64,000 nt of DNA from Escherichia phage IME267: the sequence record NC_070983.1. The stretch is one strand, 5' to 3'. Shown in pieces: positions 8,204 through 58,916 of the stretch; the first letter of the stretch is position 1, and every line of letters begins with the position of its first letter. The notes beneath the pieces were generated by a model. The model worked only from the letters and a program-made list of their open reading frames with translations. It was not told the DNA's origin and did no database searches. A program made the position numbers and the translations under genes.

Positions 8204-9238
8204 ATGGCATATGGAATATGGACACGCCCGGTTGGTCCGGGTCCAGCGGCCCCTGCTGATATTTATATTGATAGTGGTAGCACATTCCCTCAACTCAGAA
8301 ATAGGGTCAGTGGGAATTTCTCTTTTAGTGGAAATACCTGTGACTTGCCTATAAGTGGTTGGGATGGTAGTGGTCAGATAGTTATAGTTCCAACAGGGTC
8401 TGTTGTTTGGGAGAGATACATACCTCCCAATTTAACATCTGATGTATATTGGATAACTGACATATCTGTTATTAATAACTCAACCTTCAGAGTTACTATG
8501 GACTATAATGTAAACGGTTGGATATTTGATATGGCTTTTAATGTGTATCAAATATGGCCTAGAGCTAATAGGAACTATGGAATCACATTCTCCAACTCTG
8601 CTGACTATTTCTCAATCTCTGATTCTGGAGTTGTTGGTCAATGTATTTGGGCTTGGGAAGGTGACATAAATGGTTCTCTTCAAATACCAGATATTGGTGG
8701 TTTTGATATGAGCCGAGCAACTGTCTACGCAAATTGGAGTAACGGAGGAGCAGGGCTTCTATACAATCCATCCAATAGGGTTGTTTATGTGTACCAGAAC
8801 AGGTCTCATGATAATGGTAACACAAACCAAACAGGATCCATTGGCGGTGTTAGAATTGCCGTCTTCTGTGATGGTTCTGGAGTACCGACTCATAATGGAG
8901 GTTTAAATATCTTTTCTCCAAATGGGTCTCAGTGTGTATTTTCTACATATAGAACCCCTTTTAGTGTTGAGGGATTTATGCCTATGAGTGGTGGTAACAC
9001 ATCTCTGGCCTATCCAATGATACCACTATCTTACGGAGCCGGAGCAATAAGAGGCAGGACTAGTGGTTGGTATTTTCAACACACAAGATCTCACATGATG
9101 AATGGCTCTTCTTTCAGCACAGGTTTCGGTAGGATGATTTACTCTTGGAGTGACCAATACGATTTAGGAGGAGGTGGTGCTCTCGGATTAAGCATTCCGA
9201 TATTAGATGCTAGGAAAATATTCAGGAGTATACAATAA
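8204..9238 (+). CDS. Structural protein, unknown function
   Basis: ORF coupled to neighbours in structural operon. Confidence 0.35.
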   Translation: MAYGIWTRPVGPGPAAPADIYIDSGSTFPQLRNRVSGNFSFSGNTCDLPISGWDGSGQIVIVPTGSVVWERYIPPNLTSDVYWITDISVINNSTFRVTMDYNVNGWIFDMAFNVYQIWPRANRNYGITFSNSADYFSISDSGVVGQCIWAWEGDINGSLQIPDIGGFDMSRATVYANWSNGGAGLLYNPSNRVVYVYQNRSHDNGNTNQTGSIGGVRIAVFCDGSGVPTHNGGLNIFSPNGSQCVFSTYRTPFSVEGFMPMSGGNTSLAYPMIPLSYGAGAIRGRTSGWYFQHTRSHMMNGSSFSTGFGRMIYSWSDQYDLGGGGALGLSIPILDARKIFRSIQ

Positions 9239-11116: not shown

Positions 11117-12085
11117 ATGGCTTTATTTAGTGGTGGGAGTAGCAAGACTACTTCTAAAATGACAAGACCTGACTACATTCAGTCCTATATTGATCAGTTG
11201 GTCAATCAGGTTAATAACACTAGTTCAGGCGATTATGTGTATCGAGAAATTGTTGGACTTAATCAAAACCAGCAAGAAGCTCTGAATAATCTATCACAAT
11301 CTGGTGCATTAGGTGCACTTTCTTCTCAGTATATGGATGCTGCTCAATCTGGCTTAGGTTATCTAGATAATGCATACTCTGGATATAACAACCTGTCTAA
11401 CTCTGGTCAAATCACTGGGGAACAGATTGGTGCTCTTGCAGGCCAGCTCTATGACGATGAGGCTGTGCAAGCAGCTATTGCAGCGAATAATGAACAAACC
11501 CAACAGAGTTTGGCTAGGAATGCACTTCCTCAAATCTCTCAGCAGTTTGCTGGTCAGCAAGGTTCTGGTGCACGTATGGCTAAATCTTTTGCTCAGGGTG
11601 ATGCTCTGAACCAGATGCAGAACACAGCAACTAATATTACTAACAGTGCCTACGACTCCGCTCTAACTCAAGCACAGAACATTCTTTCTGGTAATAGACA
11701 AACACAAGCATCTGCTTTAGGTGGTTTATCTAACATTGGCTCCAATCTTGCTAATCTAGGAAACCAAGCTGGTCAGTTATCACAACAGCAAATGATGAAT
11801 CAGTGGAATGCAGGACTGCAACAGCAGCAACAACAGCAATCTGATTTGAACAATGCTTATGAGAATGCTCAGAATGCTGCTAATTGGGGTTGGCAGGATA
11901 TTAACAATCAACTAGGTGCTGCCGGGGTTCTTAATGGAGCTTTAGGGACAACCACAACTACTAAAACATCTGGTGGTAGTGGAGGCTTCCTAGGTGGTGC
12001 TGCGAGTGGTGCTGCTGCTGGTTCAGCTTTTGGCCCTTGGGGCGCTTTAGCTGGCGGTGTTATCGGTGGATTAGCTAGCTCTTAA
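11117..12085 (+). CDS. Gln/Asn-rich internal virion protein (paralog of 10055..11107)
   Basis: Similar N-terminal pattern and composition. Confidence 0.35.
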   Translation: MALFSGGSSKTTSKMTRPDYIQSYIDQLVNQVNNTSSGDYVYREIVGLNQNQQEALNNLSQSGALGALSSQYMDAAQSGLGYLDNAYSGYNNLSNSGQITGEQIGALAGQLYDDEAVQAAIAANNEQTQQSLARNALPQISQQFAGQQGSGARMAKSFAQGDALNQMQNTATNITNSAYDSALTQAQNILSGNRQTQASALGGLSNIGSNLANLGNQAGQLSQQQMMNQWNAGLQQQQQQQSDLNNAYENAQNAANWGWQDINNQLGAAGVLNGALGTTTTTKTSGGSGGFLGGAASGAAAGSAFGPWGALAGGVIGGLASS

Positions 12086-12099
12086 TTAGGAGAATAATT

Positions 12100-13767
12100 A
12101 TGCAACAAACTTCTTATGCGTATCTTCGCAGTCAAGACCCAAGAAATCAGATTTATGGTGTTAAACAAGGGGCCGCTTCGGCCTCTCCATACATGGCAAG
12201 ACCTGCTTATCCAGCTGCTGATGTTTCTATGTATAACCGGAGACCTCCTGCTTCTCCTGTAGGTTTGTCTTCTCTTGTTGCCAATGCTCAAGAAGACCAA
12301 GAAGCTATGTTAAATCCGGGATTTAGACAGCGCCTTATGGAAGCAGAGAATCAAGGAACTCCTACAAGCCTTCAGGGTATTGATATTGGTGAACCAGCTC
12401 CTGCTATGAATAACCCAGATCTATCCTCTGATGAGGGTCTACAAGCTGCTGGGTTGATGCCTAGTGACCCACTTCCTGTTACTCCTCCTCGTAAACCTCT
12501 GGAAGAAACAGATAAAGAGTTCTCTCCAGTTCAAGTGGAACAGGCTCAGAATGTTATTAACACTTTAGCTAATAGTAATCCAGCTCCTGAAGGTATGGCT
12601 GGTGCAACTCGTGCTAAAGACCAAGAACGTATTAATAATGATATTATGGAAGTAGCTAAAGCTAAAGACCCAGCACAAGCTTGGAATGAGCTTCAGAAGC
12701 AACCGTTCTATCAGAAGTCTAGTTTCTATACAGGGTTGATGGGTGTTGGTCTTTCTATTATGTCTGGTAAGTCCCCTATTGAAGCTTTCCAGATTGGCTC
12801 TGGTTTGGCTGCTCAGGATGAAACTAAACAACAGTTAGAAGCTAATCGTGATGCTCTGTTAGAGCAAGGCTACTCTCAAGACTCGGTTGCTGCTGCAATT
12901 GCTTCAGGAGATCCTTCTCTTCTTAAAATGCGTCAAATTAGTCCTCAGGAGAAAATGGCTCTTGCTGCTCAAGATGAAGAACGTGCTAACCGTGAATGGG
13001 ATAGACGTCAGCAGATTCAAGAGAACTCTATGCGAGAGCGTGCTGCTGAGACTCGTCGTGCTGCTGAAGAACGTGCTGATGCACAATTTGCTAAACAGAA
13101 AGAGCTTATTGAATATCGTGATAAGGTTAAAGCAGACCGCGCTGAACAAGCTGCTCAGAGCTTCAACTTCAGTACGAAAGAGCTTCGTAACGTTCAGAAT
13201 ACTGCTGAAGGTTCTGTTGCTAAGCAGTGGGCAGAAAAAGCTGCTCTGTTTAAACAGTCTCATAAGGACTTGGATTTGGCAGATCAGGCTATTAAAGATA
13301 AAGACTACCAATCCGCTCGTACCGCTTACATGCAGGCTATTATGAACTCCGCAAGGGCAGAAATTGGTGCTAACCGCTCTCTCCAAGCTGATGACTTGGC
13401 TCACTTTGCAGAAGACCCATCAATCTTTGTTAAGGTTGGTAATACTTGGTCACTTAAAGCAGGCTATCGTCCTTCTGATGCTGCTCTGTCATACGCTCGT
13501 AAGCAGGCAACTGTTGGTGCTTCTTCGGCTGACAAAGGTGTTCTGGAGTCTAAGAAATCAACTATTGATGCTTATGTGGGTTCTGGCATGAATAAGAAAC
13601 GTGCAACAGCTTTGGTTAACCGTGGTATACCTTCTGGCGGTTTCTATGACCCATACAAGACTTTTGATGCAGAAGCTGAAGAATCTGTTGGTGGAGATGC
13701 AACCAATCCTCGCTTAACAGGTGCTCTTTCTTCTTCAGCGACAGATACGAGTTGGATGTTACAGTAA
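12100..13767 (+). CDS. Internal virion / ejection protein, unknown function
   Basis: 555 aa with charged coiled-coil central region. Confidence 0.35.
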   Translation: MQQTSYAYLRSQDPRNQIYGVKQGAASASPYMARPAYPAADVSMYNRRPPASPVGLSSLVANAQEDQEAMLNPGFRQRLMEAENQGTPTSLQGIDIGEPAPAMNNPDLSSDEGLQAAGLMPSDPLPVTPPRKPLEETDKEFSPVQVEQAQNVINTLANSNPAPEGMAGATRAKDQERINNDIMEVAKAKDPAQAWNELQKQPFYQKSSFYTGLMGVGLSIMSGKSPIEAFQIGSGLAAQDETKQQLEANRDALLEQGYSQDSVAAAIASGDPSLLKMRQISPQEKMALAAQDEERANREWDRRQQIQENSMRERAAETRRAAEERADAQFAKQKELIEYRDKVKADRAEQAAQSFNFSTKELRNVQNTAEGSVAKQWAEKAALFKQSHKDLDLADQAIKDKDYQSARTAYMQAIMNSARAEIGANRSLQADDLAHFAEDPSIFVKVGNTWSLKAGYRPSDAALSYARKQATVGASSADKGVLESKKSTIDAYVGSGMNKKRATALVNRGIPSGGFYDPYKTFDAEAEESVGGDATNPRLTGALSSSATDTSWMLQ

Positions 13768-13837: not shown

Positions 13838-16800
13838 ATGGCTAATTTAAAATCGTGGGAAGAAGCTTCCAAAGCTCCTGCGTATCTGAATGCCTCTCCA
13901 GAGCAACAGGCTCAAATGAGAGAACAATACAAGGCAGCAGGGGGCACTATTCCTGAGACTCAACCACAAGAGCAACCACAACAAGAAGAACGAGGTGCTA
14001 TTGGGGAGTTTGCTCAAGGTGTGTCTAACGCTCTTCAATCCGGTGGTGCTAACATTGCAGCTAGTGCTGCTAGAGGTATAGGTGGGCTGGTAGAGATTGG
14101 TGAAAACTTAACTGGTTCAGAAACAAGCTACGGTAAGCGTATTCAAGAGAACTCCAAGCAATTGCTGGAAGAGCGCTTATCTAAGATAGAAGATGGTTTT
14201 GGTAAAACAGCTGGTCAGTATGCTGGAGTTGCTGCTGATATTGGTTTGACAGTTGCAAACCCTGCTGTTGCTGCTGCTGTTATTGCGGCTCGTGAAACAG
14301 GTCGTGCATATGCTGACCAAACTCCAAAAGAAGACGAAGACAAGTCAGTTCTGGATGCTGCTCTTGTTGGTGGTGCTAACTACGCTGCTCAGAAAATCCT
14401 TCCGGGTATGACTGGTACAGCTTCTACTACTCTTGGTCGTGTAGGACAAAGCGTAGCCTCTAACGCAGTTGCTGGTGCTAAGGGTGGTGCTATTGTTGGT
14501 GCTGCTGAAGCTCAGAACAAATATGGGGATGACACTACTCTAGCTAACATATTAGAAGGGGCTATTGAAGAGGGTGCACTCGGTGCTGCTTATGGTGGGG
14601 CGATTGGTGGGGTTCATGGGTTAATAAGCCGTCCTAGCCCTCAAGTGTTTGATCGTACTCCTGAGCATGTTAAGACTGACATTGCTGCTGAAGATGAGGC
14701 TATTCGTAAAGCTGCTAACGCTGATGAACTCCGTGAAGCCTATGCTAAAGCTGAGAATGCTAATGCTGCCTCTGCTTTAAACCTTCTGGATGAAAATGGT
14801 TTCCGAATCACAGATGCAGTTGCTATGGACTCTCCTGCTGTTCAGCGTATCTTAAATACAGACCAAAGTCGTGCAGAGAAGGCTGCTACGGTTCAGAAAG
14901 ATAGCTCTAACGTTCCCGGTCTTAATCCTCTCGCTTCTCCTAAGAAGACTCAAGGTAAAGCTTTTGCTGACAATGAGTACAACCAGAAACAAGCTGTGGC
15001 AATGAAAGATGCAATGGCTGACTACACTAAAGATAACACCAAAGCCCTTACTGATGTTCTAGACAACCTAGACCGAGAGTTAGTAGCTCTGAGAGCAAGT
15101 GGTGATTTTACTGGTAGTGCTATTGACATTAAAAACCGTACTCAAGCTGATCGTGATTTTATTGATGCTTATAAAACTTTTTACAGTGAAGCTAATCGTT
15201 TCAAAGCTCGTGATGGTGAAGACCTAAACAACTTCATTGATAAAGCTACTCAGTTGCAGAAGCTCTCTGAAAATGTTTCTCCAGAAATGAAGAAGGCCAT
15301 TGGTGGATTAAAGAAACTAAAAGGTATGCCTGAAGGTTTTAACCCTATCCAAGATGCTTTCACTCTGAATAATACAGCTAAGTTCATGAGTAACCAAGAC
15401 CGTGGTTGGACCTCTCTGACTGATGACGGTTTTCGTGAAGCTCCGGCTCCTGTGTTAGTTAAGAATCCTCTCGGTGCAGCCAAGTATGTACTTAACCGCT
15501 TTACTTCCGATCGTGCTCGTGCTCAACGTGAGAAGCAACAGTCAGCTAATAGTGAAGCTATCCGCTCTTTGGCTAGGGCTGATTTAGAAGTACAACGAGC
15601 TAGGACTCAGGCTGAAGAAGCAAGAGCAAAAATGGAAGAAGAACCAACCACAGAAGACATCAAATTCCGTACTCAAAATGATGCACCTTCCGAACCGGTT
15701 CGTGAGGAGCCTTCTGCTACTACTGTGACGGAAGAAATTCCTTCCTCTCCAGCTCCAACTGAAACACCTCTTACTGCGAGGGATTTGGTTGCTCAAAGAC
15801 GTGCTCTCCAACAAGCAGAGCTTAGACGTCAAGAAGCTGAAGCTGCTCAGGCTCAAGAAAGTGCTACACCAGAACCTGAACCGCAGCAAGAAGCTCTTAC
15901 AGCTAGAGAATTAGTAGCTCAGCGTAGGGCTGTAGCAGAGGCTAAGAAGCGTCAAGAGGCAGAGGAAGCAGAACGTGCTAAAGAAGCTCCTGAGGAGGCC
16001 GTAGAAGAGCCTAAAGAGAAACCTGAGCCATTACCTGCTCGTGCTCCTAAAGCTCCTGAGAAGGCTCCTGAGCCTGTTAAACCGTCACTTGGTGTAGAGC
16101 GTCTAGCTTCTATGTCAACTGCTGCTCGTCAAGCAACGAAAGACCGTGCTGATCGATTTGCTCGTTCTTTATATTCGGCTGCTGCTAAAGCTAAAGCCAC
16201 TGCGGAAAACTTCCTTTCTTACAAAGGAGACCCTAAAGAGCTTATGCGTCGTATCCGTCAGGAAGACCAAGCAAACAACACACAGCGTCATGAAGAGATG
16301 GCTAGAAACCAACTAGCTTCACAGCAAGGCATTGCTTCTGCTAAATCTCAACATGTTCGTGCTTCTTTTGCTGGTTGGGTGAAAGAACGTGGGTTGCCTT
16401 CTGATATTGCTACTAAGGCTTTACGGGCTGAAGAGAAAGGTTTAGGTGGGAACGTCACAAGTCTAGATTCACTGAAGCGAAGAGCTGAGCGTTTATATCA
16501 GAAACAAAGAGATGATGAGTTTGACCGTCTCTATCGAGAGGCTCTGGAAGAGAATAAAGCTTTTGATAAGAGAGATGCTCCTAAACTGGTAGACCAGAAG
16601 AAAGAGCTTCAGGATGAAATTGGTGCGTTGCTTGATGCTGAACCGTTACGTCCTGCTCAGAAAGATGCTATGCGTAGGATTATGGAAGACTTCGTGGAGA
16701 GTAAGTTTAAATCTTCAGAGAGAGCTGGAAGGGTTGAGGCTTTGGAAGTTGGTCAGATGAAGGATGTGTGGGATGGGTTTATTAATACCTATAACCGAGA

Positions 16801-18283
16801 AGTTAACATGTTCAACAAGGCTAACAAGAATTCTCAATACGAAGCAGCAGCTAAACACTTGCAAGCACGTCAAGAACGTCTTGAGACGCTCCGTAACAGA
16901 GCTAAAGCTCGCAGTGATGCTAAGGCAGCCATGGAGGCTGAGAAGCAGTCCTTGGAGGCTATAGCGGCTCAGAAATCAGAGATAGAGAAGATGTTCAAAG
17001 AATTGCCTGAAAGTGTCAGAGAGGCTCAGGAAGGGCGTACTTTGAAACAGCTTGCTGCTCACCATGATAAGAACTCTCCAGTACCACCAGAGCGTTTCCG
17101 TAGTATCATTGAACGTATTCACAACGCTGAGAGTGATTACCTCGATCGCAAACGTCGTTTGACCGAAGCAGAGGAAGATGCTCGTGAAGCTAAGTGGAAT
17201 AGGATGTATGAACAGGCTGAGGAAATGAACCGTAAGTTTGATATCGATGCTAGAGTGAAGAGAGATAAGGCTCTGAAGGAAGCTCAAGAACGAGAAAATG
17301 ACTTAATGGCAGTTCAACGTCAGCGTGACGACATTCATAAGCGTTTGGTCAATACTCTGGAAGAGAAGGGAGTTTCTAGAGAAGATGCTGAAGCATATGC
17401 TGGGTCTTACATGGATAATCGGTATGCTTTGTTAGAGAAACCAATGACTCCAGTGGAACATCAGAATGCTCGTGCTCGTATCGAATCTGACGTAGAGAAG
17501 TTTGTTAAGAAATACGAAACAGCTACTCCAATCGAAAGAGAGATTGCTAAAGCAACTGGTGATGCAGATGGGAAACCTTCTGACTTAGATGCAGAAACAT
17601 TAAAAGCTATCGAAGATGCTCGTAAAGTTGATTCCGATTTTAAGAAACTCTTAGATGAAGAGAAGGAAATGGAGAAGATTCGTTCAGCTCTACCTGAAGA
17701 TGAAAGATCTCAGGCGAACTCTGATATTCTGGAAAGTATTAAGAAACAGGAAGATGATTTTGCTAGCAAAGCAGAGAAAGCTTTTATTGAAGGGAAGGAC
17801 TTGCAGGAGTTAGCGAGTGTTGCAGAAGTTCTAGATAGGGTTCATGGTGCAGACAAGGCTGGTAACAACCGTCGATTTGTACGTGCTCTACAGACTGCTG
17901 CCGAGAACAAGAAACGTTATGGGGATAATCCAGTGGCTTGGTTTAGTGCTGATGATTACTCTGCTATTGCGAAACTTGGTGCTGCTTCGGCAGGTGGTAA
18001 CAAATCTCGAGCACTTGAGAAAATCTTTGGTTCTACAGCAGAACAAGCTAAAGGGAAACTTTTAGGGCGGGATGATGTAGCTAAGATTAGACGTGTGATT
18101 GAAGCGAATCCCAATGTTAAGATTCCTTCTTACAAGACAACTACTCGACAAGAGTACATGCAGTTCTTGGAGAAGTATAATGACGAGGGAGAGTTGAAAG
18201 TCAAACGTGGTTCTCTGTCTGACAAGTTGGAGAGAGGTAAGCGTCAAGCTAAACTCCGTGTTAGAGTTCGAGCTAAGGAGTAA
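13838..18283 (+). CDS. Very large internal virion / ejection protein with Ala/Glu/Arg-rich coiled coils and internal repeat
   Basis: 1481 aa; duplicated segment TAR(D/E)LVAQRRA…; last gene of + block. Confidence 0.45.
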   Translation: MANLKSWEEASKAPAYLNASPEQQAQMREQYKAAGGTIPETQPQEQPQQEERGAIGEFAQGVSNALQSGGANIAASAARGIGGLVEIGENLTGSETSYGKRIQENSKQLLEERLSKIEDGFGKTAGQYAGVAADIGLTVANPAVAAAVIAARETGRAYADQTPKEDEDKSVLDAALVGGANYAAQKILPGMTGTASTTLGRVGQSVASNAVAGAKGGAIVGAAEAQNKYGDDTTLANILEGAIEEGALGAAYGGAIGGVHGLISRPSPQVFDRTPEHVKTDIAAEDEAIRKAANADELREAYAKAENANAASALNLLDENGFRITDAVAMDSPAVQRILNTDQSRAEKAATVQKDSSNVPGLNPLASPKKTQGKAFADNEYNQKQAVAMKDAMADYTKDNTKALTDVLDNLDRELVALRASGDFTGSAIDIKNRTQADRDFIDAYKTFYSEANRFKARDGEDLNNFIDKATQLQKLSENVSPEMKKAIGGLKKLKGMPEGFNPIQDAFTLNNTAKFMSNQDRGWTSLTDDGFREAPAPVLVKNPLGAAKYVLNRFTSDRARAQREKQQSANSEAIRSLARADLEVQRARTQAEEARAKMEEEPTTEDIKFRTQNDAPSEPVREEPSATTVTEEIPSSPAPTETPLTARDLVAQRRALQQAELRRQEAEAAQAQESATPEPEPQQEALTARELVAQRRAVAEAKKRQEAEEAERAKEAPEEAVEEPKEKPEPLPARAPKAPEKAPEPVKPSLGVERLASMSTAARQATKDRADRFARSLYSAAAKAKATAENFLSYKGDPKELMRRIRQEDQANNTQRHEEMARNQLASQQGIASAKSQHVRASFAGWVKERGLPSDIATKALRAEEKGLGGNVTSLDSLKRRAERLYQKQRDDEFDRLYREALEENKAFDKRDAPKLVDQKKELQDEIGALLDAEPLRPAQKDAMRRIMEDFVESKFKSSERAGRVEALEVGQMKDVWDGFINTYNREVNMFNKANKNSQYEAAAKHLQARQERLETLRNRAKARSDAKAAMEAEKQSLEAIAAQKSEIEKMFKELPESVREAQEGRTLKQLAAHHDKNSPVPPERFRSIIERIHNAESDYLDRKRRLTEAEEDAREAKWNRMYEQAEEMNRKFDIDARVKRDKALKEAQERENDLMAVQRQRDDIHKRLVNTLEEKGVSREDAEAYAGSYMDNRYALLEKPMTPVEHQNARARIESDVEKFVKKYETATPIEREIAKATGDADGKPSDLDAETLKAIEDARKVDSDFKKLLDEEKEMEKIRSALPEDERSQANSDILESIKKQEDDFASKAEKAFIEGKDLQELASVAEVLDRVHGADKAGNNRRFVRALQTAAENKKRYGDNPVAWFSADDYSAIAKLGAASAGGNKSRALEKIFGSTAEQAKGKLLGRDDVAKIRRVIEANPNVKIPSYKTTTRQEYMQFLEKYNDEGELKVKRGSLSDKLERGKRQAKLRVRVRAKE

Positions 18284-23399: not shown

Positions 23400-23906
23400 T
23401 TAAATAGTGATGATACTTTGTTCTTTTCTTCTTTCATCAAAAATCTTCCTAATCTCTTGCAGAGATACAGCTTTAAAGTTGATTTGTTCCATCGAAGTAC
23501 AGAAGTATCTCCAATCACCAATCACATGATTATGAGTATGAGCATAGATGTTGAACTTCCCTCTCATTTCATCAGAGTGAATAGGAATATGAGTTACCCA
23601 AAACTCTTTGTACTTATAATCACCACTGATGTGTCTAAAGACTTTCATCATATCAGGGAGAAGTTCTAATCTATCATGGTTCCCTAAGACAAGATGTTTC
23701 TCTCCCTTTACTTCAGCGATAATATCAAGTGCATACTTCTCAAACACCCAGTCACCTGTAAAGAAAGTTTTATCACGTTTAGTAACATGGTCAAACGCTG
23801 CTAAGATAGCTTTGTCGTGTTCTTCAATACTACTAAACCTCTTCCTAAAGCTACAGATGTTACGATGGCCTAGGTGACCATCACCTGCAAAATAAACTTC
23901 AGCCAT
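23400..23906 (-). CDS. Calcineurin-like metallophosphoesterase
   Basis: …YFAGDGHLGH…, …LVLGNHD…, …HTHNH… metal-binding motifs; start set to MAEVYF. Confidence 0.6.
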   Translation of the reverse strand: MAEVYFAGDGHLGHRNICSFRKRFSSIEEHDKAILAAFDHVTKRDKTFFTGDWVFEKYALDIIAEVKGEKHLVLGNHDRLELLPDMMKVFRHISGDYKYKEFWVTHIPIHSDEMRGKFNIYAHTHNHVIGDWRYFCTSMEQINFKAVSLQEIRKIFDERRKEQSIITI

Positions 23907-49827: not shown

Positions 49828-50190
49828 TTACTCTGCTACCAAAAGGCTCAGAGATTTGCGAATGTAGTCAATACTACGGAAGTTTCGATAACTCTCTTGG
49901 AAGCGCATCTTTTCAAACTCTGCTTCCTGAAGCTCTACCTCTGCTGCTTTATATCCTGATAAAGCTAAACTTACCACATCCTGAGGTAAGGTATTACGAC
50001 GGCGAATAAGATATTTATTCGCTTTTAGTTTACCTTGTGCACGAGCCATTTTGGCCTTTGCCGCCTTGATACCATGAGAAATCCAAAGCAGTTGCTGTTT
50101 CAGATCTTCCTCATCCATACCACCTAAATCATTTGCTACTTTATGCAGCGTAGACAGGTTCACATGGCCTTTAATGGGGCGTAGGTTCAT
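49828..50190 (-). CDS. Hypothetical protein
   Basis: 120-aa helical ORF; start overlaps stop of upstream small ORF (ATGA). Confidence 0.35.
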   Translation of the reverse strand: MNLRPIKGHVNLSTLHKVANDLGGMDEEDLKQQLLWISHGIKAAKAKMARAQGKLKANKYLIRRRNTLPQDVVSLALSGYKAAEVELQEAEFEKMRFQESYRNFRSIDYIRKSLSLLVAE

Positions 50191-50354
50191 AACTTCTCCT
50201 GTTTGTCACATTGATTGGTTAGCCAGTTGTAAGACCCACTGTTGTTCTTGCTTAACTCGCAAGATGCAAAAGAGTACATCCTGACAAACCCCACAGTGGC
50301 TAAGCAAATAAAGATTGCTGCCAATAAGAATTTAGCTTTCAACTTATTATCCAT
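50187..50354 (-). CDS. Small signal-peptide protein (55 aa), not in the ORF track
   Basis: Translated by hand: MDNKLKAKFLLAAIFICLATVGFV…; AAGAAGAGG RBS; ATGA coupling to next gene. Confidence 0.35.
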   Translation of the reverse strand: MDNKLKAKFLLAAIFICLATVGFVRMYSFASCELSKNNSGSYNWLTNQCDKQEKL

Positions 50355-50372
50355 ACAACCTCTTCTTTGAGC

Positions 50373-50400
50373 TTAAAAAAGGACTCTCCTAAGAGAGCCA
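50373..50400 (-). terminator. Terminator-like hairpin on - strand followed by U6
   Basis: GGCTCTC-TTAG-GAGAGTCC then TTTTTT on - strand. Confidence 0.4.
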
Positions 50401-50489
50401 AGCTTTAAGGCCAATTAAATAGATATCACCCAATATCTGTGGATAACCTGCTCTTAAAATATTCTATCCGACGGATGTTCGAGGATTAT

Positions 50490-50600
50490 TCCTCTCCCTA
50501 GCATCGGCCCCATACGGGAAAGATTAAATTAAGTTTAGGTTAGTTGAGCCAGAATAGCTCACATAGCCCTCTGATACTCACAAGGGCTATAGATGTTACT
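50490..50600. repeat. Copy 1 of ~110-nt repeated element with conserved hairpin, immediately 3' of paralog gene 50596..50844
   Basis: Blocks tctccctagc…tagttgagtgag…ctcacATAGCCCTctgatactcacaAGGGCTATa…gatgttact shared with 56030..56150. Confidence 0.6.
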
Positions 50601-50844
50601 CTGTGGCTCCGTCGAATCGGAGGATTGCTGCTGGAACAGGGTATACTTCCAGATCTTCATCCAGTCGGTATAGATGCCCTGTACTTAAATTTACAGCTGT
50701 TACTGGCTTAGAGTGGCCTCCAGCCTGTATGGAAGGAACTCTGATAAAGAACTCTTCTGGATATTCAACAGAGTGGAACACACTTCCTGAATAAAGATCT
50801 TTTATTTTAGAAGTTTGTTTAGGAGTTTTATCAGCAATTTTCAT
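50596..50844 (-). CDS. Small protein, L-x-x-G-(D/E/S)-x-F paralog family
   Basis: …IKDLYSGSVFH…YPVPAAI…. Confidence 0.45.
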   Translation of the reverse strand: MKIADKTPKQTSKIKDLYSGSVFHSVEYPEEFFIRVPSIQAGGHSKPVTAVNLSTGHLYRLDEDLEVYPVPAAILRFDGATE

Positions 50845-51105
50845 TACAGACCTTTCTTAGCACGATCTTTGGCAGTTTTGCCAGTGCGGATACGATGGGA
50901 AACATTAACCAGCTCGCCACCTTCGACGATGGTTACGCTTTTGTTTTTCGCAATATCAAACACAGTTTTCTCTGTGCCGCCCAGACGAATCTGTTTAGGC
51001 TCACTGTGGGTCTGAGTTGATTTAGACTGGAACTGGAACGGCTGACGGATGGCATCAATTGCGCTAACTTTAGACATGTTTTTATTACCTTACATTAAAG
51101 AGAGA

Positions 51106-51534
51106 TTAAACAACGAATTGGAACGCTTCGTATCCAAACTTGTATAAGAAATCGTGTTTGAACTTTACTACACGACCACGATCGCGGAAAGCTTTCAGGC
51201 GACTGCTGAACCCAACCATTGGCTCAGGGTCAATAGGGCTACGAATCTTCATAGCTACAGAGTGCAGCTTGAAGCGTTTACCAGTGCTACAGGCCATCAT
51301 CACATACTCCATACGAGTAGTCCAGATGTTGAGCACCATGCTTGTTTTCTCCGCTGACCAACCAGTCTTGCGGGCGATTTCTTTATGGACATTAAGCTCC
51401 AAAGGAAGAGGGAATTGCTTGTTGAATGAAGCCGGATATAGCTTGACCAGAAGGTCAATGTTTTCTTTATACGTTAAGTAAGCCAATTTCTTGCTTACGT
51501 TAGGGAATTTCCCAGACATTTTTTGAAGCTCCAA
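51106..51534 (-). CDS. ProQ/FinO-domain-like RNA-binding protein
   Basis: …KKLAYLTYKENIDLLVKLYPASFNKQFPLPLELNVHKEI…LNIWTT… resembles the ProQ N-terminal FinO-like domain. Confidence 0.45.
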   Translation of the reverse strand: MELQKMSGKFPNVSKKLAYLTYKENIDLLVKLYPASFNKQFPLPLELNVHKEIARKTGWSAEKTSMVLNIWTTRMEYVMMACSTGKRFKLHSVAMKIRSPIDPEPMVGFSSRLKAFRDRGRVVKFKHDFLYKFGYEAFQFVV

Positions 51535-51965
51535 AACAGCGCCGAAAAGAGAGGCGTCATAGTAGCTAAAAGGAGGAGAGAAGAGGGCTTATTTACTTGC
51601 CTTTTTCTGTCCGTTAATGTACCAGATAACTGAACCGTCAGGCTGTCGTTGACCGAAGCCTTTCAAGTTAACCATTTCTTCTTCAGAGTAGGCACGTTTT
51701 CTCACTGATTTTCTCCTGTCAGTAGAAGGTGTGTGTAGAGTCGTCGTTCATAGATAACCAAACGAAGAAGACAATCACACAGAAAGCAATAATACCGAGA
51801 GTTGCAAGGATTATAGTGTTAGCTAATGTGATATCTAACACGCTTTGCAGATATATAAAGAACTGTACGACACCACATACCATCAGCACAACCCCAACGA
51901 CAATGAGGAGCCAATATGTGCAGAGAAGGACTGCATCTAATAGTGATACATACTTTGGATGATCT

Positions 51966-52232
51966 TTATGTCTCACTGATCTTTTCCACTAAATCCAGAG
52001 TTGCTGATTCAAATACAACACCAACTACCATATTAGGTGCCATATTACGAACGTATCCGCTCTGCATAGACACGGCCCGAGAGTATTCAGAACCGTTAGA
52101 ACTTTTGTTTACCTTCATGTAAAGGGTTTGCTCTTTATCTTCTTTCAGAGTAAAGAAAGAGCCGGGAAGAAGCCTCTGAACAGTCAGAGGGATATCTGCA
52201 ACATGAGTCTTATTGATAGTAAGAACTGTCAT
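51966..52232 (-). CDS. Small protein, L-x-x-G-(D/E/S)-x-F paralog family
   Basis: …VQRLLPGSFFTL…. Confidence 0.4.
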   Translation of the reverse strand: MTVLTINKTHVADIPLTVQRLLPGSFFTLKEDKEQTLYMKVNKSSNGSEYSRAVSMQSGYVRNMAPNMVVGVVFESATLDLVEKISET

Positions 52233-52235
52233 TGC

Positions 52236-52490
52236 TTATTCCTTAATAGTTGCTTCAGCTTTAACAGGAATAACAGCAACATCTTTACGAGGTGCTGTCG
52301 CTCGGCCCGTATTAAGACAGGCTACAAGTCTGTGCTCATCTGCACCCTTAATACAAAGTCGAGTAGAGAACTCAGTAGACAGTAAGATGTACAAATCATC
52401 ATCTTCACTGTTAGGGTACATGAAGCAATCCCCAAGTCGCAAAGCACTGAGAGGTATTGAGTTTTTACCTGCTGGTTTATTAACTTTCAT
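52236..52490 (-). CDS. Small protein, L-x-x-G-(D/E/S)-x-F paralog family
   Basis: …SALRLGDCFMY…VIPV…; start set to internal Met. Confidence 0.4.
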   Translation of the reverse strand: MKVNKPAGKNSIPLSALRLGDCFMYPNSEDDDLYILLSTEFSTRLCIKGADEHRLVACLNTGRATAPRKDVAVIPVKAEATIKE

Positions 52491-53323
52491 TTTACCACCT
52501 TTAGTTATGGACCAAATAGAATTATTAAAGAGTGCACTAGCTCTGGGCCACGTTGTGAACATCGGCCTACCTTTCACAACTAATCAACTAATGCACTCAT
52601 TAATAGCTTATCTACTCCAATAAAATAGGGGGAGGGGACGAATCCTCCCATATCCTATTAATTAATATTGCATGTAAGACCTAACAATCCGATGCTGTAG
52701 TGGATAGCGTAAAACGCTTACCGGCATTAAACCCAGCCCATGAGGGGCTTATGTGAATAAAATGCTCAACATTGAGCGGTTAGTTGATAGGAGACCTGAA
52801 GTCCTATCTCAAAGGACTCTCGTAAGAATCCTTCACGATATTACTTAGTAATAAAGACTGTCATCTTGTCCAACACCCACTCTAACAGGAGCATGAAAGG
52901 GATGAGTAAGAGGAATAATAACAAAATAGGCCAGAAGAATATTGCTATCCAGATAGAACATTCATCAGGCTTACCACTCCACGGGTTGTGGAAGAAGTTA
53001 TAGAACGTATTGGTTTTGAAGCACCACTTAACTACGATGGCTGCTAACCACCAACCAATAACATAAATCAGGAAGACATACGATGCTGTAACCATTGACC
53101 ATTCCATTGATAGTTGCGAGTGACCACGTTTCCGTGGATAAGAAAGTGCTGGCGGCGAAGGATATCTTTAACGTTGTAATAGGCAGCGTTTCCGATATGA
53201 CCTTCTTTGATAAGCCAGCGCAGGTTACGAATATCAACCAACAACATCTTTACTTGCTGTTGGCATGAAGTTTGAGCTGCTGTTTCAAGCAGAGATTTCG
53301 TATCAGAATAATGACCAGACATA

Positions 53324-53629
53324 TCACCACTCCTTACCTGTTGTTGTCACAGAGCCACCACACCATAATGCGGTGTCAACCACAACCTTATCCGGTGTAG
53401 ACTTCTCTTCGTTGATAGACGGATTCGCATTAGAACAAGTTGCCCCGTTATATCGCATATCAACCTCACCACTAGGAATCTTCTCCCCGCTATGCCAACG
53501 GGAAACACAGACACCTTCTACAGATAATGCACACCATCCATCAGGACGATGCTGTACACAGCCTGTAAGAGCTACACAGGCGATAAAGATACAGGTTAAG
53601 GTAATTACACCACCCCAACTCATAAGCAC
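53324..53629 (-). CDS. Putative lipoprotein
   Basis: Signal peptide with lipobox-like LTGC; Cys-rich mature part. Confidence 0.4.
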
Positions 53630-53763
53630 CTCCTATTTGATTTGGTGGACTATCTGGAATCGAACCAGAAGCTCACTAAGAAAGCAATTCCCACTGTTAT
53701 AAAAGCACTTGCCTCAACAGGGATACACTAACTCTGGTGCCGTACCCATACTAGCCCTAAATG

Positions 53764-53839
53764 TGGTGCACCCTACAGGACTCGAACCTGTAACCAACGA
53801 CTTAGAAGGTCGCTGCTCTGTCCGTTGAGCTAAGGGTGC
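53764..53839 (-). tRNA. tRNA-Arg(UCU): tRNA-Arg (anticodon UCU), 76 nt with encoded CCA
   Basis: Hand-folded cloverleaf: 7-bp acceptor stem, D arm, anticodon loop CTTCTAA, T arm ACAGG-TTCGAGT-CCTGT, 3' ACCA. Confidence 0.8.
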
Positions 53840-53848
53840 TGAATTTGT

Positions 53849-54058
53849 TTAACTGAAGATACGCAAGGCCACATCGTGACCGATATGACCGGGAACTTTA
53901 TGCTGTTCTATTTTCAAACAGTGTTTACAGATACGAGATACACGAGATTCTTTTCTCTCTACTGGAGTGTCTTTAGCGTGAGTGATATGTAAGTTTTCAG
54001 TGACCACCCATTCATGTTTACATCCAGAATCTTCGGGCTTTTTCTTACGAAAGAACAT
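53849..54058 (-). CDS. Small Cys/His-rich protein, tandem paralog family
   Basis: …GCKHEW…CKHC…; start set to internal Met. Confidence 0.35.
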   Translation of the reverse strand: MFFRKKKPEDSGCKHEWVVTENLHITHAKDTPVERKESRVSRICKHCLKIEQHKVPGHIGHDVALRIFS

Positions 54059-54066
54059 AACACCTC

Positions 54067-54231
54067 TTAGATCAGATCTGTTTTCTTGTGCAGACCACAC
54101 ACTTTACAGCGAGAGTAGATACGCAACCCTTGTCGCTCTCTGTCAGTAAGTTTATTTGTGATCGTCAGTTCATAAGTATGAAGATCTTCCCACTCATGGA
54201 AATGAAAGAAACGTTTGAACCATTTAATCAT
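54067..54231 (-). CDS. Small Cys/His-rich protein (54 aa), not in the ORF track; tandem paralog
   Basis: Hand translation MIKWFKRFFHFHEWEDLHTYELTITNKLTDRERQGLRIYSRCKVCGLHKKTDLI*. Confidence 0.45.
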   Translation of the reverse strand: MIKWFKRFFHFHEWEDLHTYELTITNKLTDRERQGLRIYSRCKVCGLHKKTDLI

Positions 54232-54240
54232 AATGATTCC

Positions 54241-54402
54241 TTAGATTACATCACGATGACTAACATCACCACACACCTTACACTGAATAACGTAACGTGT
54301 GCCCTTGTCATTGTTCCCATCTGAATCTGTATAGACCAGAGGACGGGTGTTAATAATCTTCCAATCATGACAATGGAAGACACGCTTTAGCCATTTAATC
54401 AT
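54241..54402 (-). CDS. Small Cys/His-rich protein, tandem paralog
   Basis: MIKWLKRVFHCHDWK…CKVCGDVSH…. Confidence 0.45.
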   Translation of the reverse strand: MIKWLKRVFHCHDWKIINTRPLVYTDSDGNNDKGTRYVIQCKVCGDVSHRDVI

Positions 54403-55469
54403 ACTAAGCACACGCCGGTAATTCAATTAACTGAGGAGTACGACAAGGGCCATCCTCATACACACCTACTAGTGTTGGCATGTAAGGCCCAGCGCACTGG
54501 TATTCATCGAACAGTTCATTGTAAGTAGGCTTCCACTTCCAAGCCCACACATAACCCATTCGATCAATGGCAATGTAACGAGTGTTCAGAGGAACCTGCA
54601 TCATCACATCACCAACTGCTATTACTTTCGTAATAACTACTGCTCGGAAGTTTGTCTTCATGACTTTGCAGCCTCCATCATTTTATTCATTTTAGCCACA
54701 CCTTTACGGATAAGAGGCATAAATTCATCAGCCAGTTCAGTGGATAAAAGTTTAAGCCCGCCTGATTTAATACCGTTCACCGCCTTCTCAACTTCATCCG
54801 ACAGCAATGTCATTGTTAACCACGGGGATTTTATTACCACAGTAAAGCCCGGTTCATACCGCGAGTGACTGTAGGTGAACTCTAAATGAGTAACACCGGG
54901 CATCTTAGACATTTGAGCACGGATATCTACATTAGGGTTGCAGCGAGTTGAAGATGAAATTGTCATGGCGCTTTAATCTCAATCTGAACGTTGACGACGA
55001 ATACAGTATGGTTTGCACTGTACACTGAAGTGCCTATGATTGGCTTATCATCACTGAGGATTTCAACAGCGTGCTCAAGGTTAATCTTCAGATGAAGACG
55101 CCCTGATTCCATGAAGAAATCACCAGCACGTATCTCACCGAACTTAGCTGGCACACCGATAGAGGGTATCAGTATGTCAGTGCGACCTTTACGGTCAAAT
55201 AAACGATTGAACATATCAACCCCTTATGTAATATCAACCTCAAACCAACAGGTAAGAGCTTTTTCATTGTTGCGTTTTGGCTCAAAGGATTTAACAACCG
55301 ATAATACTCGGCGCTGTTCTCCATCAAACCAGATAGTTTCATCTTTTTCAGGGAGTAGGTTGTGTGCAGCACAAACGATTTCACCTAGCACAACCTGTCT
55401 GCCATCTTGCTTACGAACTAAACGAATGTTCATAACAACCTCTCTTGTTAGTTTAAGTAAGAGTTGTCC

Positions 55470-55510
55470 CTTAATTAAAACAACAAAGGCCACCCCTAAG
55501 GGCAGCCTCT
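55470..55510 (-). terminator. Terminator-like hairpin on - strand with U-rich tail
   Basis: GGCTGCCC-TTAG-GGGTGGCC (two GU pairs) then TTTGTTGTTTT. Confidence 0.4.
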
Positions 55511-56029
55511 TATTTAAGCGCAAGCACTACGCAGTTTGTTATTCAAGAAGCGATCTTCTGCATTATACAGGAATGCATAGAACAACTCTTTTGCTACATC
55601 CCGATCGCAATTGAGACATTTAGAGATCTGTAACAACAAACCATCACGACTATTAGGATGGTCAATTATCGCAAGACGAATAATCTCACGAATACCAATG
55701 TCATGCTCAGCCGCCATAGAACCAATCACCCTGACGTTTACGAATGTTAGTTGTCAGACGAAGCATGGCAGACTCAATCTTCAGAGCACCATTTGCTACT
55801 GCATCCATACGTTCAGGACGGTTCATACGTTTGGTTGTCTTTTTCATAATGTTCTCTCTTTATTGATGGAGGCAGGATTGCCAGTTGATATAAAGGGAAG
55901 CCCTACACGTTAAGGCTTCCGCTTGTACAAACTGTCGAGAACTCTCTACCCCTAGATTGTTCTCTATCCCAAACCGATACATACCCCTACATATCGGAAT
56001 GCCATTCGAAAATTAACAGGTTTTAGTCT

Positions 56030-56150
56030 ATCACCGGATGTTTGAGACAAGTCTCTCCCTAGCGGTGAGCCATATGGCGTTGAGATTATAGTTAATTGAG
56101 GAACATCCTCACATAGCCCTCTGATAAACACAAGGGCTATAAGTCGATGT
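56030..56150. repeat. Copy 2 of ~110-nt repeated element with conserved hairpin, immediately 3' of paralog gene 56150..56374
   Basis: ctcacATAGCCCTctgataaacacaAGGGCTATa differs from copy 1 at only 2 loop positions. Confidence 0.6.
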
Positions 56151-56374
56151 TACTTGTTGGTTAGTCGTGCGTTAGGTACAGGTCTGACTACAGTCGATTT
56201 ACACTCAGAATCACGCTTACCTGTATAAAGGTTAACAAAATAACTTTTGTTTTCACCATAACACGCAGTACGCATGTAATATTGAGTTTCGTTATAGTTA
56301 AACTGGAAGACTTCACCCGGATTTAGATCACCGAGAGTTACAATCTCTGGTGTATTATCGATATCAATTTTCAT
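56150..56374 (-). CDS. Small protein, L-x-x-G-(D/E/S)-x-F paralog family
   Basis: …TLGDLNPGEVFQF…VRPVPNA…. Confidence 0.45.
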   Translation of the reverse strand: MKIDIDNTPEIVTLGDLNPGEVFQFNYNETQYYMRTACYGENKSYFVNLYTGKRDSECKSTVVRPVPNARLTNK

Positions 56375-56605
56375 TTAACCACCAATATTAGTCACTTGAA
56401 CATCAAATACAGGGATAACTTCATGATGTTCCTGTAACTGGAATAGTGTTCCCTGACGAAGACCAACCACACGATGCATATCATTCAGGCAGGTGTCTGT
56501 CTTTAGATAGAGGTGTTCAGAGTTAGTTGGTAGACGGAATACATCACCCGGACGTAGATCGCTGAGTTTTTTAGTAACAACTAAAGATGGGAGATTAATT
56601 TTCAT
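56375..56605 (-). CDS. Small protein, L-x-x-G-(D/E/S)-x-F paralog family
   Basis: …LSDLRPGDVFRL…VIPVFDV…. Confidence 0.45.
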   Translation of the reverse strand: MKINLPSLVVTKKLSDLRPGDVFRLPTNSEHLYLKTDTCLNDMHRVVGLRQGTLFQLQEHHEVIPVFDVQVTNIGG

Positions 56606-56761
56606 TTGATTAACACCAAATCAGTACGACGTTCGAAGGAAGGGGAGGATTCACCATTCCACTGAACAAGATAACAGAGAACACCATCAATCGTTGTTCT
56701 CCGACGAATAACACCTGTAACAGTTCCACCAACAAGGCGAACGGTGTCGCCAACGGTAAAT

Positions 56762-57067
56762 TTAACCTTTGATCGCATCTCCTGTTTCCTCATTCTGGCG
56801 TTTAATTTCTTCAGTGAGTTGTTTGTTTAGATCTTGAATACGCTTAATCTCCCAACCCAAAGAAGCCAAACGATCGTTACGTGCTTCGATTTGTTCCTGC
56901 ATTTTGAGTAATTTGGAACGAACATCAGCATTAAAAACTTCTTCTTGCTTAAGAAGGAACTCGTAACGACGCTTCCAGCTTGCTGATTTATTTCTTAAAA
57001 TAATAAACCCTAGAGTAGAAACCGTTACAGTGAGTACGAAAAGGAACTTATAAACCTCTAAAGACAT
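56762..57067 (-). CDS. Small membrane-anchored coiled-coil protein
   Basis: N-terminal TM helix then charged helical region. Confidence 0.35.
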   Translation of the reverse strand: MSLEVYKFLFVLTVTVSTLGFIILRNKSASWKRRYEFLLKQEEVFNADVRSKLLKMQEQIEARNDRLASLGWEIKRIQDLNKQLTEEIKRQNEETGDAIKG

Positions 57068-57268
57068 ATCTTTATCCTCTTAAAGTAAGATATTATAAGA
57101 AATATTATTTAGAATTTATTATTTCTAAACTTAATTTCTATCAATAATTTTCAGAGGTCTATATACAGTCATTACCTCTGGTCCCAAATCACTTCCACTT
57201 TTTACAGAGAAAATCATAAGTGTGTGATTTATAAGGAAATTTAGTTTGTCAATATTGGCACCTACGAA

Positions 57269-57655
57269 TCAGTCACGGGAGCTATTATTGAACACTAAAT
57301 CACCACAATACATCGGATTGGTATACCACTTTGGCACCCCTTCGCTCTTACTCTGAAAGTATGTACCGCTGTACAAAGGCACATAACCTTTCTTCAGTGC
57401 ACGCCTTGCAAGCCGCTCGCTCTCTCTGATTGATTTCTTTATCAGAGGGTTATCATCACGAATTAGCTTTACATAACGCTTAAAAGGTTTCTCCTTCTTT
57501 AATAGGACGGGTATCCACTCGAACTGGTTTCGTTGATTTATAACCTGCTCGGCAGTCAGTTTTCGTTGTGACATTCTGTTTATTACGGTATCCGCTACTA
57601 ATGCTTTGCAAGCGGTTGGCTGATTCCCTGCCTCATAATAAATAGTCAATGTCAA
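57269..57655 (-). CDS. SleB/CwlJ-like cell-wall hydrolase domain protein
   Basis: …YYEAGNQPTACKALVADTVINRM…NQFEW…GYVPLYSGTYFQ… resembles the Hydrolase_2 family. Confidence 0.45.
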   Translation of the reverse strand: MTLTIYYEAGNQPTACKALVADTVINRMSQRKLTAEQVINQRNQFEWIPVLLKKEKPFKRYVKLIRDDNPLIKKSIRESERLARRALKKGYVPLYSGTYFQSKSEGVPKWYTNPMYCGDLVFNNSSRD

Positions 57656-58415: not shown

Positions 58416-58694
58416 TGTTTTATTCCTTTCGCTGATAAATTATATCGTGCAAGCCTTACCACATAGCAAGGCTTAACCAAATAACTTAATCAATTAAACT
58501 AAACGATTTCCAACTACGTGTAATTGCTACCTTTTCGCCATCAAAGAGAACACTTACAGAGATCAGTTTACCGCGACAACTGGATACCGTGGTAATACGT
58601 CCGGTTAATGCCTTACCTTTATTCAGGTAGTGATAGCGGACACGACGTCCTAACAAACGAGTAGCTTTCTTCTCTAACGTGCTTAAGCTGGTCA

Positions 58695-58916
58695 TTAAAT
58701 AGCCCCTTTATATTGGAGTGATCTTACACGACGATACATAACAGTTGATGCACTAATCGCCGCTTGTTTTCTTTCGTGCTCATGCTGATTCTTTCGAATC
58801 TTATCCATCTCGGCATCATTACGACGACGTTGTAAGATTCTGCTACATTTGCGATGGTTATTATTAGCACGTGCTTTCTTACAGATAGGGCAAAGGTGGG
58901 ATTGAGTTAAAATCAT
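58695..58916 (-). CDS. Small basic protein with CxxC motif
   Basis: …HLCPICKK…. Confidence 0.3.
   Translation of the reverse strand: MILTQSHLCPICKKARANNNHRKCSRILQRRRNDAEMDKIRKNQHEHERKQAAISASTVMYRRVRSLQYKGAI

Follow-up and report, generated by a model that had tools for sequence, protein, structure and literature searches.

Five small open reading frames (ORFs) in a stretch of DNA from Escherichia phage IME267 (NC_070983.1) are identified by profile comparisons as diverged copies of one small single-domain protein. A sixth ORF is probably a divergent member of the same family, while a seventh is not related. The stretch analyzed here, further referred to as the window, is 64,000 nucleotides (nt) long. 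The original prediction, made by reading the sequence, had grouped the five ORFs by a shared motif and had listed the other two as possible relatives. The seven ORFs, named A to G, are all present on the minus strand and are organized as follows (lengths in amino acids, aa).

A, 50596-50844, minus strand: 82 aa; last gene of its transcription unit, with a 1-nt overlap with the stop of the upstream gene.
B, 51966-52232, minus strand: 88 aa; follows C in the C-B tandem pair after a 3-nt spacer; the most divergent core member.
C, 52236-52490, minus strand: 84 aa, counted from the ATG at 52490; leads the C-B pair, with a 9-residue insertion in the beta2-beta3 loop.
D, 56150-56374, minus strand: 74 aa; follows E in the E-D tandem pair with a 0-nt spacer; strain-variable.
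E, 56375-56605, minus strand: 76 aa; first gene of the E-D pair, with its start in an ATGA overlap with the stop codon of the preceding gene; of all members, it has the most central sequence.
F, 54963-55214, minus strand: 83 aa; a 13-residue N-terminal extension, no central turn glycine and no MKI start; probable divergent member.
G, 56602-56793, minus strand: 63 aa; basic (isoelectric point, pI, 10.5), rejected as a member.

Pairwise identity within A-E is 18-30%, and BLAST or phmmer comparisons of one paralogue with another are weak by themselves (E-values from 1e-4 to above 1). Since such single-sequence searches are marginal, profiles were needed for a decision. A hidden Markov model (HMM) built from any four of the five ORFs puts the one left out at the top of all non-training ORFs in the window (773 six-frame ORFs), with E-values of 4.3e-7 for A, 1.8e-4 for B, 1.3e-4 for C, 1.2e-7 for D and 4.6e-12 for E; the next ORFs have E-values of at least 0.09. 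A profile that consists almost wholly of distant metagenomic relatives finds A-E at 4e-22 to 5e-15. In hhalign comparisons covering 488 ORFs, A-E reach probabilities of 98.6-99.5%, while no ORF beyond the six candidates exceeds 8.7%. In addition, each of the five has its best match in a different PHROG family (6570, 12612, 7832, 9955, and 16423; E-values of 1.6e-15 to 2.9e-29) and cross-matches several of the families of the others. The predicted kinship is thus borne out by leave-one-out HMMs, PHROG cross-matches, an external profile and hhalign, and in these profile tests the similarity lies well beyond chance.

The motif that had first drawn attention to these ORFs (L-x-x-G-[D/E/S]-x-F, a central L-x-[T/S]-G and a C-terminal V-x-P-V) is real, with L17, G20, F23, G52, V63, and V66 being invariant in A-E. 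ORF B deviates at the C-terminus, where V-G-V-V replaces V-x-P-V. The complete signature of the family, M-K-[IV] ... L-x-x-G-[DES]-x-F ... [YF]-[MIL]-[KR] ... V-x-L-x-[TS]-G ... V-x-[P]-V, is found in these ORFs as stand-alone proteins of 70-90 aa.

The two additional candidates turned out differently. A four-sequence profile of ORF F aligns with the family profile at an hhalign probability of 95.7% (E-value 1e-8, 55 columns), and F as a single sequence still reaches 68.8%, compared with 8.7% for the next of the 488 ORFs. It is always the best non-member match in profile searches and forms a reciprocal best non-self phmmer match with ORF E. F has its own PHROG (phrog_22099), which is matched by no core member, and an AlphaFold2 model based on its four orthologues alone is uninformative (predicted local distance difference test, pLDDT, of 41). 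F is therefore assigned by sequence profiles only, as a probable sixth, divergent member of the family. ORF G gave no signal in any of the PHROG, HMM, or hhalign tests and was rejected. Its pattern V-G-D-T-V-x-L-x-G-G...G-x-I suggests a different small KOW- or Tudor-like barrel, the Pfam matches being weak and below threshold; nor is it related to 58486-58695, another small ORF with the look of a barrel.

AlphaFold2 modeling of ORF E on a 29-sequence alignment yielded five beta strands with a mean pLDDT of 83.9 and a predicted template modeling score (pTM) of 0.70. On this model, we can confidently predict the fold of the family as a five-stranded, partly open SH3-like barrel with SH3 topology. 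Independently predicted models from the BFVD database superpose on the model of ORF E with template modeling (TM) scores of 0.67-0.81. They comprise proteins of phages ECBP2 (D-type), SU7 (B-type), Paul, NJ01, 172-1, N4 (gp21), EP335, Myduc, and Hera, and no unrelated folds emerged among them. The near-invariant positions in 117 diverse members (M1, I3, L17, G20, F23, Y33, V47, L49, G52, and V63) correspond to the hydrophobic core and the turn glycines. Only two charged positions are well conserved, D/E21 and K/R35. Insertions cluster in the beta2-beta3 loop after position 40, with 307 residues inserted, and in the beta1-beta2 loop after position 27, with 57; both loops differ in length and sequence, while core and turn glycines are kept. 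Neither the conservation pattern nor the predicted fold shows any sign of a catalytic constellation. The six members have a pI between 5.9 and 7.7, and the median among 131 relatives is 5.7, with just 15% above pI 8. These neutral-to-acidic values are not those of a typical nucleic-acid binder.

In structure, the family best matches the SH3-like domain of ribosomal protein uL2, the N-terminal domain of EF-P/eIF5A, the KOW domains of Spt5, and a PWWP domain bound to single-stranded DNA. At the sequence level, the SH3-like barrels of uL2, EF-P/eIF5A domain I, Spt5/NusG KOW, and CarD/UvrD share 2-16% identity with the family and give no family match. A KOW/Tudor-like RNA polymerase-interacting domain (NusG/Spt5, CarD/TRCF, or the UvrD C-terminus) was rejected by sequence, given that there is no Pfam or NCBIfam match. 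FeoA and the C-terminal SH3-like domain of DtxR (PF04023) resemble the family in fold only. An identity as FeoA was likewise rejected: PF04023 is matched neither by the seven ORFs at an E-value of up to 10 nor by the 117 members at up to 0.01, and the genes have no FeoB or iron-transport context.

The family extends well beyond this phage. When 1.84 billion representative proteins were searched exhaustively with HMMER, 431 clusters (50% identity) were retrieved at an E-value of at most 0.001. Nearly all are stand-alone proteins of 69-97 aa, most commonly starting with M-K-I, and about a dozen relatives are two-domain tandem fusions of 131-167 aa. Four giant proteins (P0039, P0042, P0043, and P0153; 768-3353 aa) were discarded as a probable repeat artefact, their matches, over 7-20 repeats, being confined to profile positions ~3-41 (the hairpin region with G-D-x-F). 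One distant member (P0044), located on a 122-kb metagenomic phage contig (JGI 3300059473; also locus L002, 158-1017), is directly followed by a gene (203 aa) that encodes a Gad2 (anti-Gabija)/nucleotidyltransferase domain and preceded by another 79-aa family gene detected by the family HMM in locus L003. Uncharacterized small proteins of N4-like, Serratia, Proteus, Vibrio, and Erwinia phages are among the closest known relatives. N4 gp21 (74 aa) matches the family HMM at an E-value of 1.1e-18, its BFVD model superposes on that of ORF E with a TM score of 0.75, and it shares the size and the pattern MK[IV]...G-x-x-F...Y-M-K...L-x-T-G...V-x-P-V. It differs in being a single-copy gene, located between a lipoprotein gene and an endonuclease gene; we found no published function for it.

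All homologues are named ‘hypothetical’ or ‘uncharacterized’ in the databases, and the word-indexed homologue searches yielded close relatives only. No informative match for the family genes was obtained in Pfam (117 family members covered), NCBIfam, PADLOC (defense-system proteins), or the sequences of the PDB, and neither the domain searches nor the homologue searches revealed similarity to any named protein. The window proteins do belong to existing PHROG clusters (6570, 7431, 7832, 8365, 9955, 12612, and 16423, along with phrog_22099 for F), all annotated as ‘unknown function’. These are kept as separate, unannotated families with no record of their link, their fold, or their multi-copy arrangement. 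The literature that we covered on phiEco32, Kuravirus, Gordonclarkvirinae, and N4 gp21 describes neither paralogy nor function; the original phiEco32 genome paper was outside this coverage, and an earlier mention there is possible. What is added here to the PHROG record is the link between these clusters as one uncharacterized, widely distributed family. The general kind, a multi-copy small early accessory family, is familiar.

The region from 50000 to 57500 is 94-98% identical to Escherichia phages vB_EcoP_HC-25922, MLP3, NC-B, and vB_EcoP-101114UKE3 (further UKE3), and ~93% identical to phage SU7. Both UKE3 and SU7 are phiEco32 relatives, podoviruses in the genus Suseptimavirus of the Gordonclarkvirinae subfamily. 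Judged by this nucleotide identity, the window originates from a phiEco32-like Escherichia coli podophage of the Gordonclarkvirinae that is Suseptimavirus-like. Every gene from ~18 kb through the end of the window is carried by the minus strand. The syntenic block in phages phiEco32, SU10, and YF01 is the early cluster, which runs leftward, is transcribed by the host sigma70 RNA polymerase, and encodes almost wholly hypothetical proteins (PMC8948821; PMC9965538; PMC4281155). By analogy, we infer that the family genes of IME267 are expressed early from operons transcribed by the host RNA polymerase. The proteins had been predicted to be small and early; the size stands, and the timing is backed solely via the syntenic early cluster of phiEco32, SU10, and YF01. 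A scan for sigma70 promoters returned fewer sites than in shuffled controls and was left unused. In the annotated relatives examined, all of these genes are labelled ‘hypothetical protein’. The neighbors of the family genes are phage early ORFs, a lipoprotein, a DUF7247 protein, a ProQ-like protein, and a cell-wall hydrolase.

The individual members differ in their conservation among these relatives. ORF A matches phrog_6570 at an E-value of 1.6e-15 along with six other PHROGs of the family (hhalign probability 99.3%). It has orthologues in 21 phage records, 11 of them at just 60-80% aa identity, with a ratio of nonsynonymous to synonymous polymorphism (pN/pS) of 0.10 against SU7. ORF B matches phrog_12612 (2.9e-29; hhalign 98.6%; pN/pS 0.16), cross-matches 6570 and 7431, and is 30-32% identical to phiEco32 gp95 and its SU10 and NJ01 orthologues. 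ORF C matches phrog_7832 (7.6e-22; hhalign 98.9%; pN/pS 0.06). Mechanically, this ORF extends to a GTG at 52577, but the ATG at 52490 is backed by an upstream ribosome-binding site (AAAGGTGG) and by orthologues of 84 aa. ORF D matches phrog_9955 (1.8e-19; hhalign 99.5%). It has no orthologue in UKE3 and SU7, where the sole match is the paralogue E at 27% identity; orthologues with at least 90% identity occur in only five phage records, and those in Kuravirus phages are 39-49% identical. ORF E was found in 20 phage records, mostly at 80-90% identity. The pN/pS of the divergent ORF F is 0.09.

In the window, the family is laid out as the tandem pairs E-D and C-B, with F and A as singletons. The starts lie close together or overlap, in the manner of operons with translational coupling, and ribosome-binding sites are present. 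A scan of the early regions of relatives with the family HMM gave the following copy numbers.

phiEco32: 9 copies (gp95-98 in tandem, gp104, gp109, and gp113-115 in tandem).
SU10: 9 copies.
NJ01: 9-10 copies.
SU7 and UKE3: 4 copies each, plus a weak F-type match.
Salmonella phage 7-11: 4 copies.
N4: 1 copy (gp21).
Vibrio phage 1.101.O: 2 copies.
Serratia phage MyoSmar: 2 copies, adjacent.

Adjacent family pairs are also present on two metagenomic phage contigs. The paralogue expansion proposed from the window is thus larger than originally noted, both within genomes and across the clusters in public data. Clustering revealed orthologue groups that are stable within a genus and almost entirely different between Suseptimavirus and Kuravirus, with only D having Kuravirus counterparts (43-48% identity in this clustering). 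Numerous early proteins of the window outside the family share 40-95% identity with their phiEco32 counterparts, whereas the family members are at ~32% or undetectable. Compared to UKE3, the flanking proteins are ~99% identical, while E is 85.5% identical and D is absent. The E-D locus (56150-56605) is a local hotspot of divergence between flanks that are 94-100% identical to UKE3, which suggests recombinational replacement. Given this variation in copy number, presence, and alleles, the family behaves as a duplicating and exchanging accessory set. As shown by these genome comparisons, the copies arose, and turn over, largely via tandem duplication and cassette exchange within the leftward cluster of phiEco32-like phages. 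The substitution pattern against SU7 (pN/pS of 0.06-0.24 per gene; pooled ratio of nonsynonymous to synonymous substitution rates, dN/dS, of 0.11, identical to that of other early genes) identifies the copies as working genes under purifying selection.

The ends of the arrays share an RNA element. A 33-nt sequence on the minus strand (ATAGCCCTTGTGnnTATCAGAGGGCTATGTGAG) with a 10-bp stem occurs exactly twice in the window, versus zero copies expected by chance.

Hairpin copy 1 (ATAGCCCTTGTGAGTATCAGAGGGCTATGTGAG), 50558-50590, minus strand: a few nt after the stop of A; RNA fold of -21.5 kcal/mol, z-score -3.25.
Hairpin copy 2, 56108-56140, minus strand: a few nt after the stop of D, at the end of the E-D array; -22.5 kcal/mol, z-score -4.72.

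The same hairpin lies directly 3' of the last array gene in SU7 and UKE3 (after A and after E), phiEco32 (gp113), SU10 (gp111), and NJ01 (131), and it was seen after a family array in every Gordonclarkvirinae phage examined. Relative to the layout in SU7 and UKE3, D sits between E and the hairpin. Copies in the loci of relatives are located at 3566-3589 and 8378-8401 (locus L001), 11996-12019 (L007), 16299-16322 (L008), 12202-12225 and 17839-17862 (L012), and 23489-23512 (L013). The hairpin and ~15 nt on each side are nearly invariant across these genera, while the upstream genes differ and are far less conserved. It has no U-tract and no Rfam match. Its probable role is to mark the 3' end of the early transcripts or a site of their processing, or to stabilize them; alternatively, it may be a recombination boundary.

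As for function, we tentatively favor, at a little short of an even chance, that the family is a repertoire of small stoichiometric binders of host defense or physiology proteins, built on a common barrel. The genes would be expressed early from operons transcribed by the host RNA polymerase, and the paralogues would act by binding, with no enzymatic activity. The shared barrel would serve as scaffold, with the variable loops and the N-terminal arm binding a different host macromolecule in each paralogue, most likely proteins of host defense or host physiology. The array would then be a set of stoichiometric inhibitors or adaptors that broadens the usable host range. The host-takeover or anti-defense role raised in the original prediction is plausible, with circumstantial support from the early location, the presence/absence and allele variation, the binder-like fold, the one Gad2 neighbor, and the resistance of Gordonclarkvirinae. 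Phages of this subfamily were highly resistant to the tested defense systems in the BASEL study and are poorly studied (PMC11990801). Multi-copy accessory families of phage early regions, which are seen as host-takeover or counter-defense repertoires, are alike in their small ORFs, tandem paralogues, strain-variable presence, and early-region location. They form a general class and not a defined family, and a counter-defense role of the IME267 copies is putative.

Several points weigh against a repertoire of host-protein binders. The early timing is inferred from relatives. Recent orthologues appear to be under plain purifying selection, with no signal of an ongoing arms race. The Gad2 neighborhood is a single case, and the defense resistance of Gordonclarkvirinae may stem from DNA modification or other genes. 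The predicted SH3-like fold is generic and also found in RNA-, DNA-, and RNA polymerase-binding domains, and the role of a hairpin that has no U-tract is a guess. The literature search found no experimental characterization, partner, target, or phenotype for any family member. A more far-reaching form of the same idea, which we consider unlikely, is a scaffold-and-loop binder system with at most ~10 copies per genome, exchanged as cassettes. Each copy would neutralize a different host immune or physiological protein, together underlying the unusually broad resistance to defense and the host range described for Gordonclarkvirinae, with the hairpin providing RNA-level control or a recombination boundary.

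Two other explanations are, in our view, improbable to a similar degree. The family members could be nucleic-acid-binding modules of the KOW, Tudor, or uL2 type that tune translation, RNA stability, or replication via phage or host RNA or DNA. This would fit the best fold matches (uL2, EF-P/eIF5A, Spt5 KOW, and the PWWP domain bound to single-stranded DNA), the ProQ/FinO-like neighbor gene, and the conserved RNA hairpins that flank the arrays, but it sits poorly with the neutral-to-acidic pI of members and relatives, with a single conserved basic position (K/R35), and with the Pfam search, in which no KOW, Tudor, S1, or Sm model was matched at an E-value of up to 10. Alternatively, the proteins could have a phage-internal or anti-phage role, either as adaptors or chaperones for replication or assembly proteins, or as superinfection-exclusion factors. 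It would be consistent with such a role that several orthologue groups persist within a genus and, as do their neighbors, evolve under purifying selection, and that one to four copies are retained in N4, 7-11, Vibrio, and Serratia phages. However, the variable presence and the near-complete replacement of orthologues between sister genera that share replication and structural modules would be unusual for a core function, and the genes are located among early accessory ORFs, outside the replication and morphogenesis modules.

A narrower form of the host-protein binder interpretation holds that the proteins neutralize host toxin-antitoxin or abortive-infection effectors in an antitoxin-like manner, comparable to the SH3-like VapX. 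We regard this as quite unlikely: the Pfam and PDB sequence searches revealed no relationship to VapX, the 20 neighboring ORFs include no toxin-like gene (VapD/Cas2-like), and the fold match to VapX is no better than that to ribosomal or Tudor domains. Binding to the host RNA polymerase, in analogy to the Tudor-like domains of CarD, Mfd, and UvrD and leading to host transcription shut-off or an early-to-middle switch, is very unlikely: when the polymerase was purified from cells infected with phiEco32, gp36 and gp79 were the only phage proteins that it carried (PMC12276001), despite the nine family copies in phiEco32.

Other features of the cluster were observed next to the family genes.

51106-51534, minus strand: a 142-aa early protein with a near-threshold match to the ProQ/FinO RNA chaperones (PF04352, E-value 1.1e-5, 25.8 bits against a cut-off of 27), with no counterpart in phiEco32.
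53767-53839, minus strand: a tRNA gene (Rfam tRNA, 70 bits) midway through the early cluster; a syntenic tRNA-Arg is annotated in relatives.
53849-54100, minus strand: a similar CKHEW...CKHC pattern, by which it may be a further member of the zinc-ribbon-like pair below.
54067-54231 and 54241-54426, minus strand: a second tandem pair of small paralogous proteins (41% identity, E-value 2e-13).
57269-57655, minus strand: a cell-wall hydrolase domain (PF07486, SleB-like, E-value 3e-7) within the early cluster and apart from the lysis module; 87% identical to its phiEco32 counterpart.

The second paralogue pair shares the pattern MIKW[FL]KR.FH.H[ED]W ... C-K-V-C-G, by which both proteins look like small zinc-ribbon proteins, and the repeat is also visible in the DNA.

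phiEco32-like phages, which serve in therapy studies, are common and have a broad host range. Almost none of their early region is annotated, and 5-10 early ORFs (~5-8% of all genes) can now be treated as one family. Since this family also reaches N4-like, Vibrio, Serratia, and many uncultured phages, hypothetical proteins that look unrelated become one experimental target. If the paralogues are indeed inhibitors of distinct host factors, they would supply numerous natural binders of small size and serve as a marker from which phage-host conflict can be read; if they are not inhibitors, the family is still a missing entry in the curated domain databases. Mechanistically, nothing is surprising yet, but the family is well-defined and experimentally tractable, in an understudied phage group of therapeutic interest.

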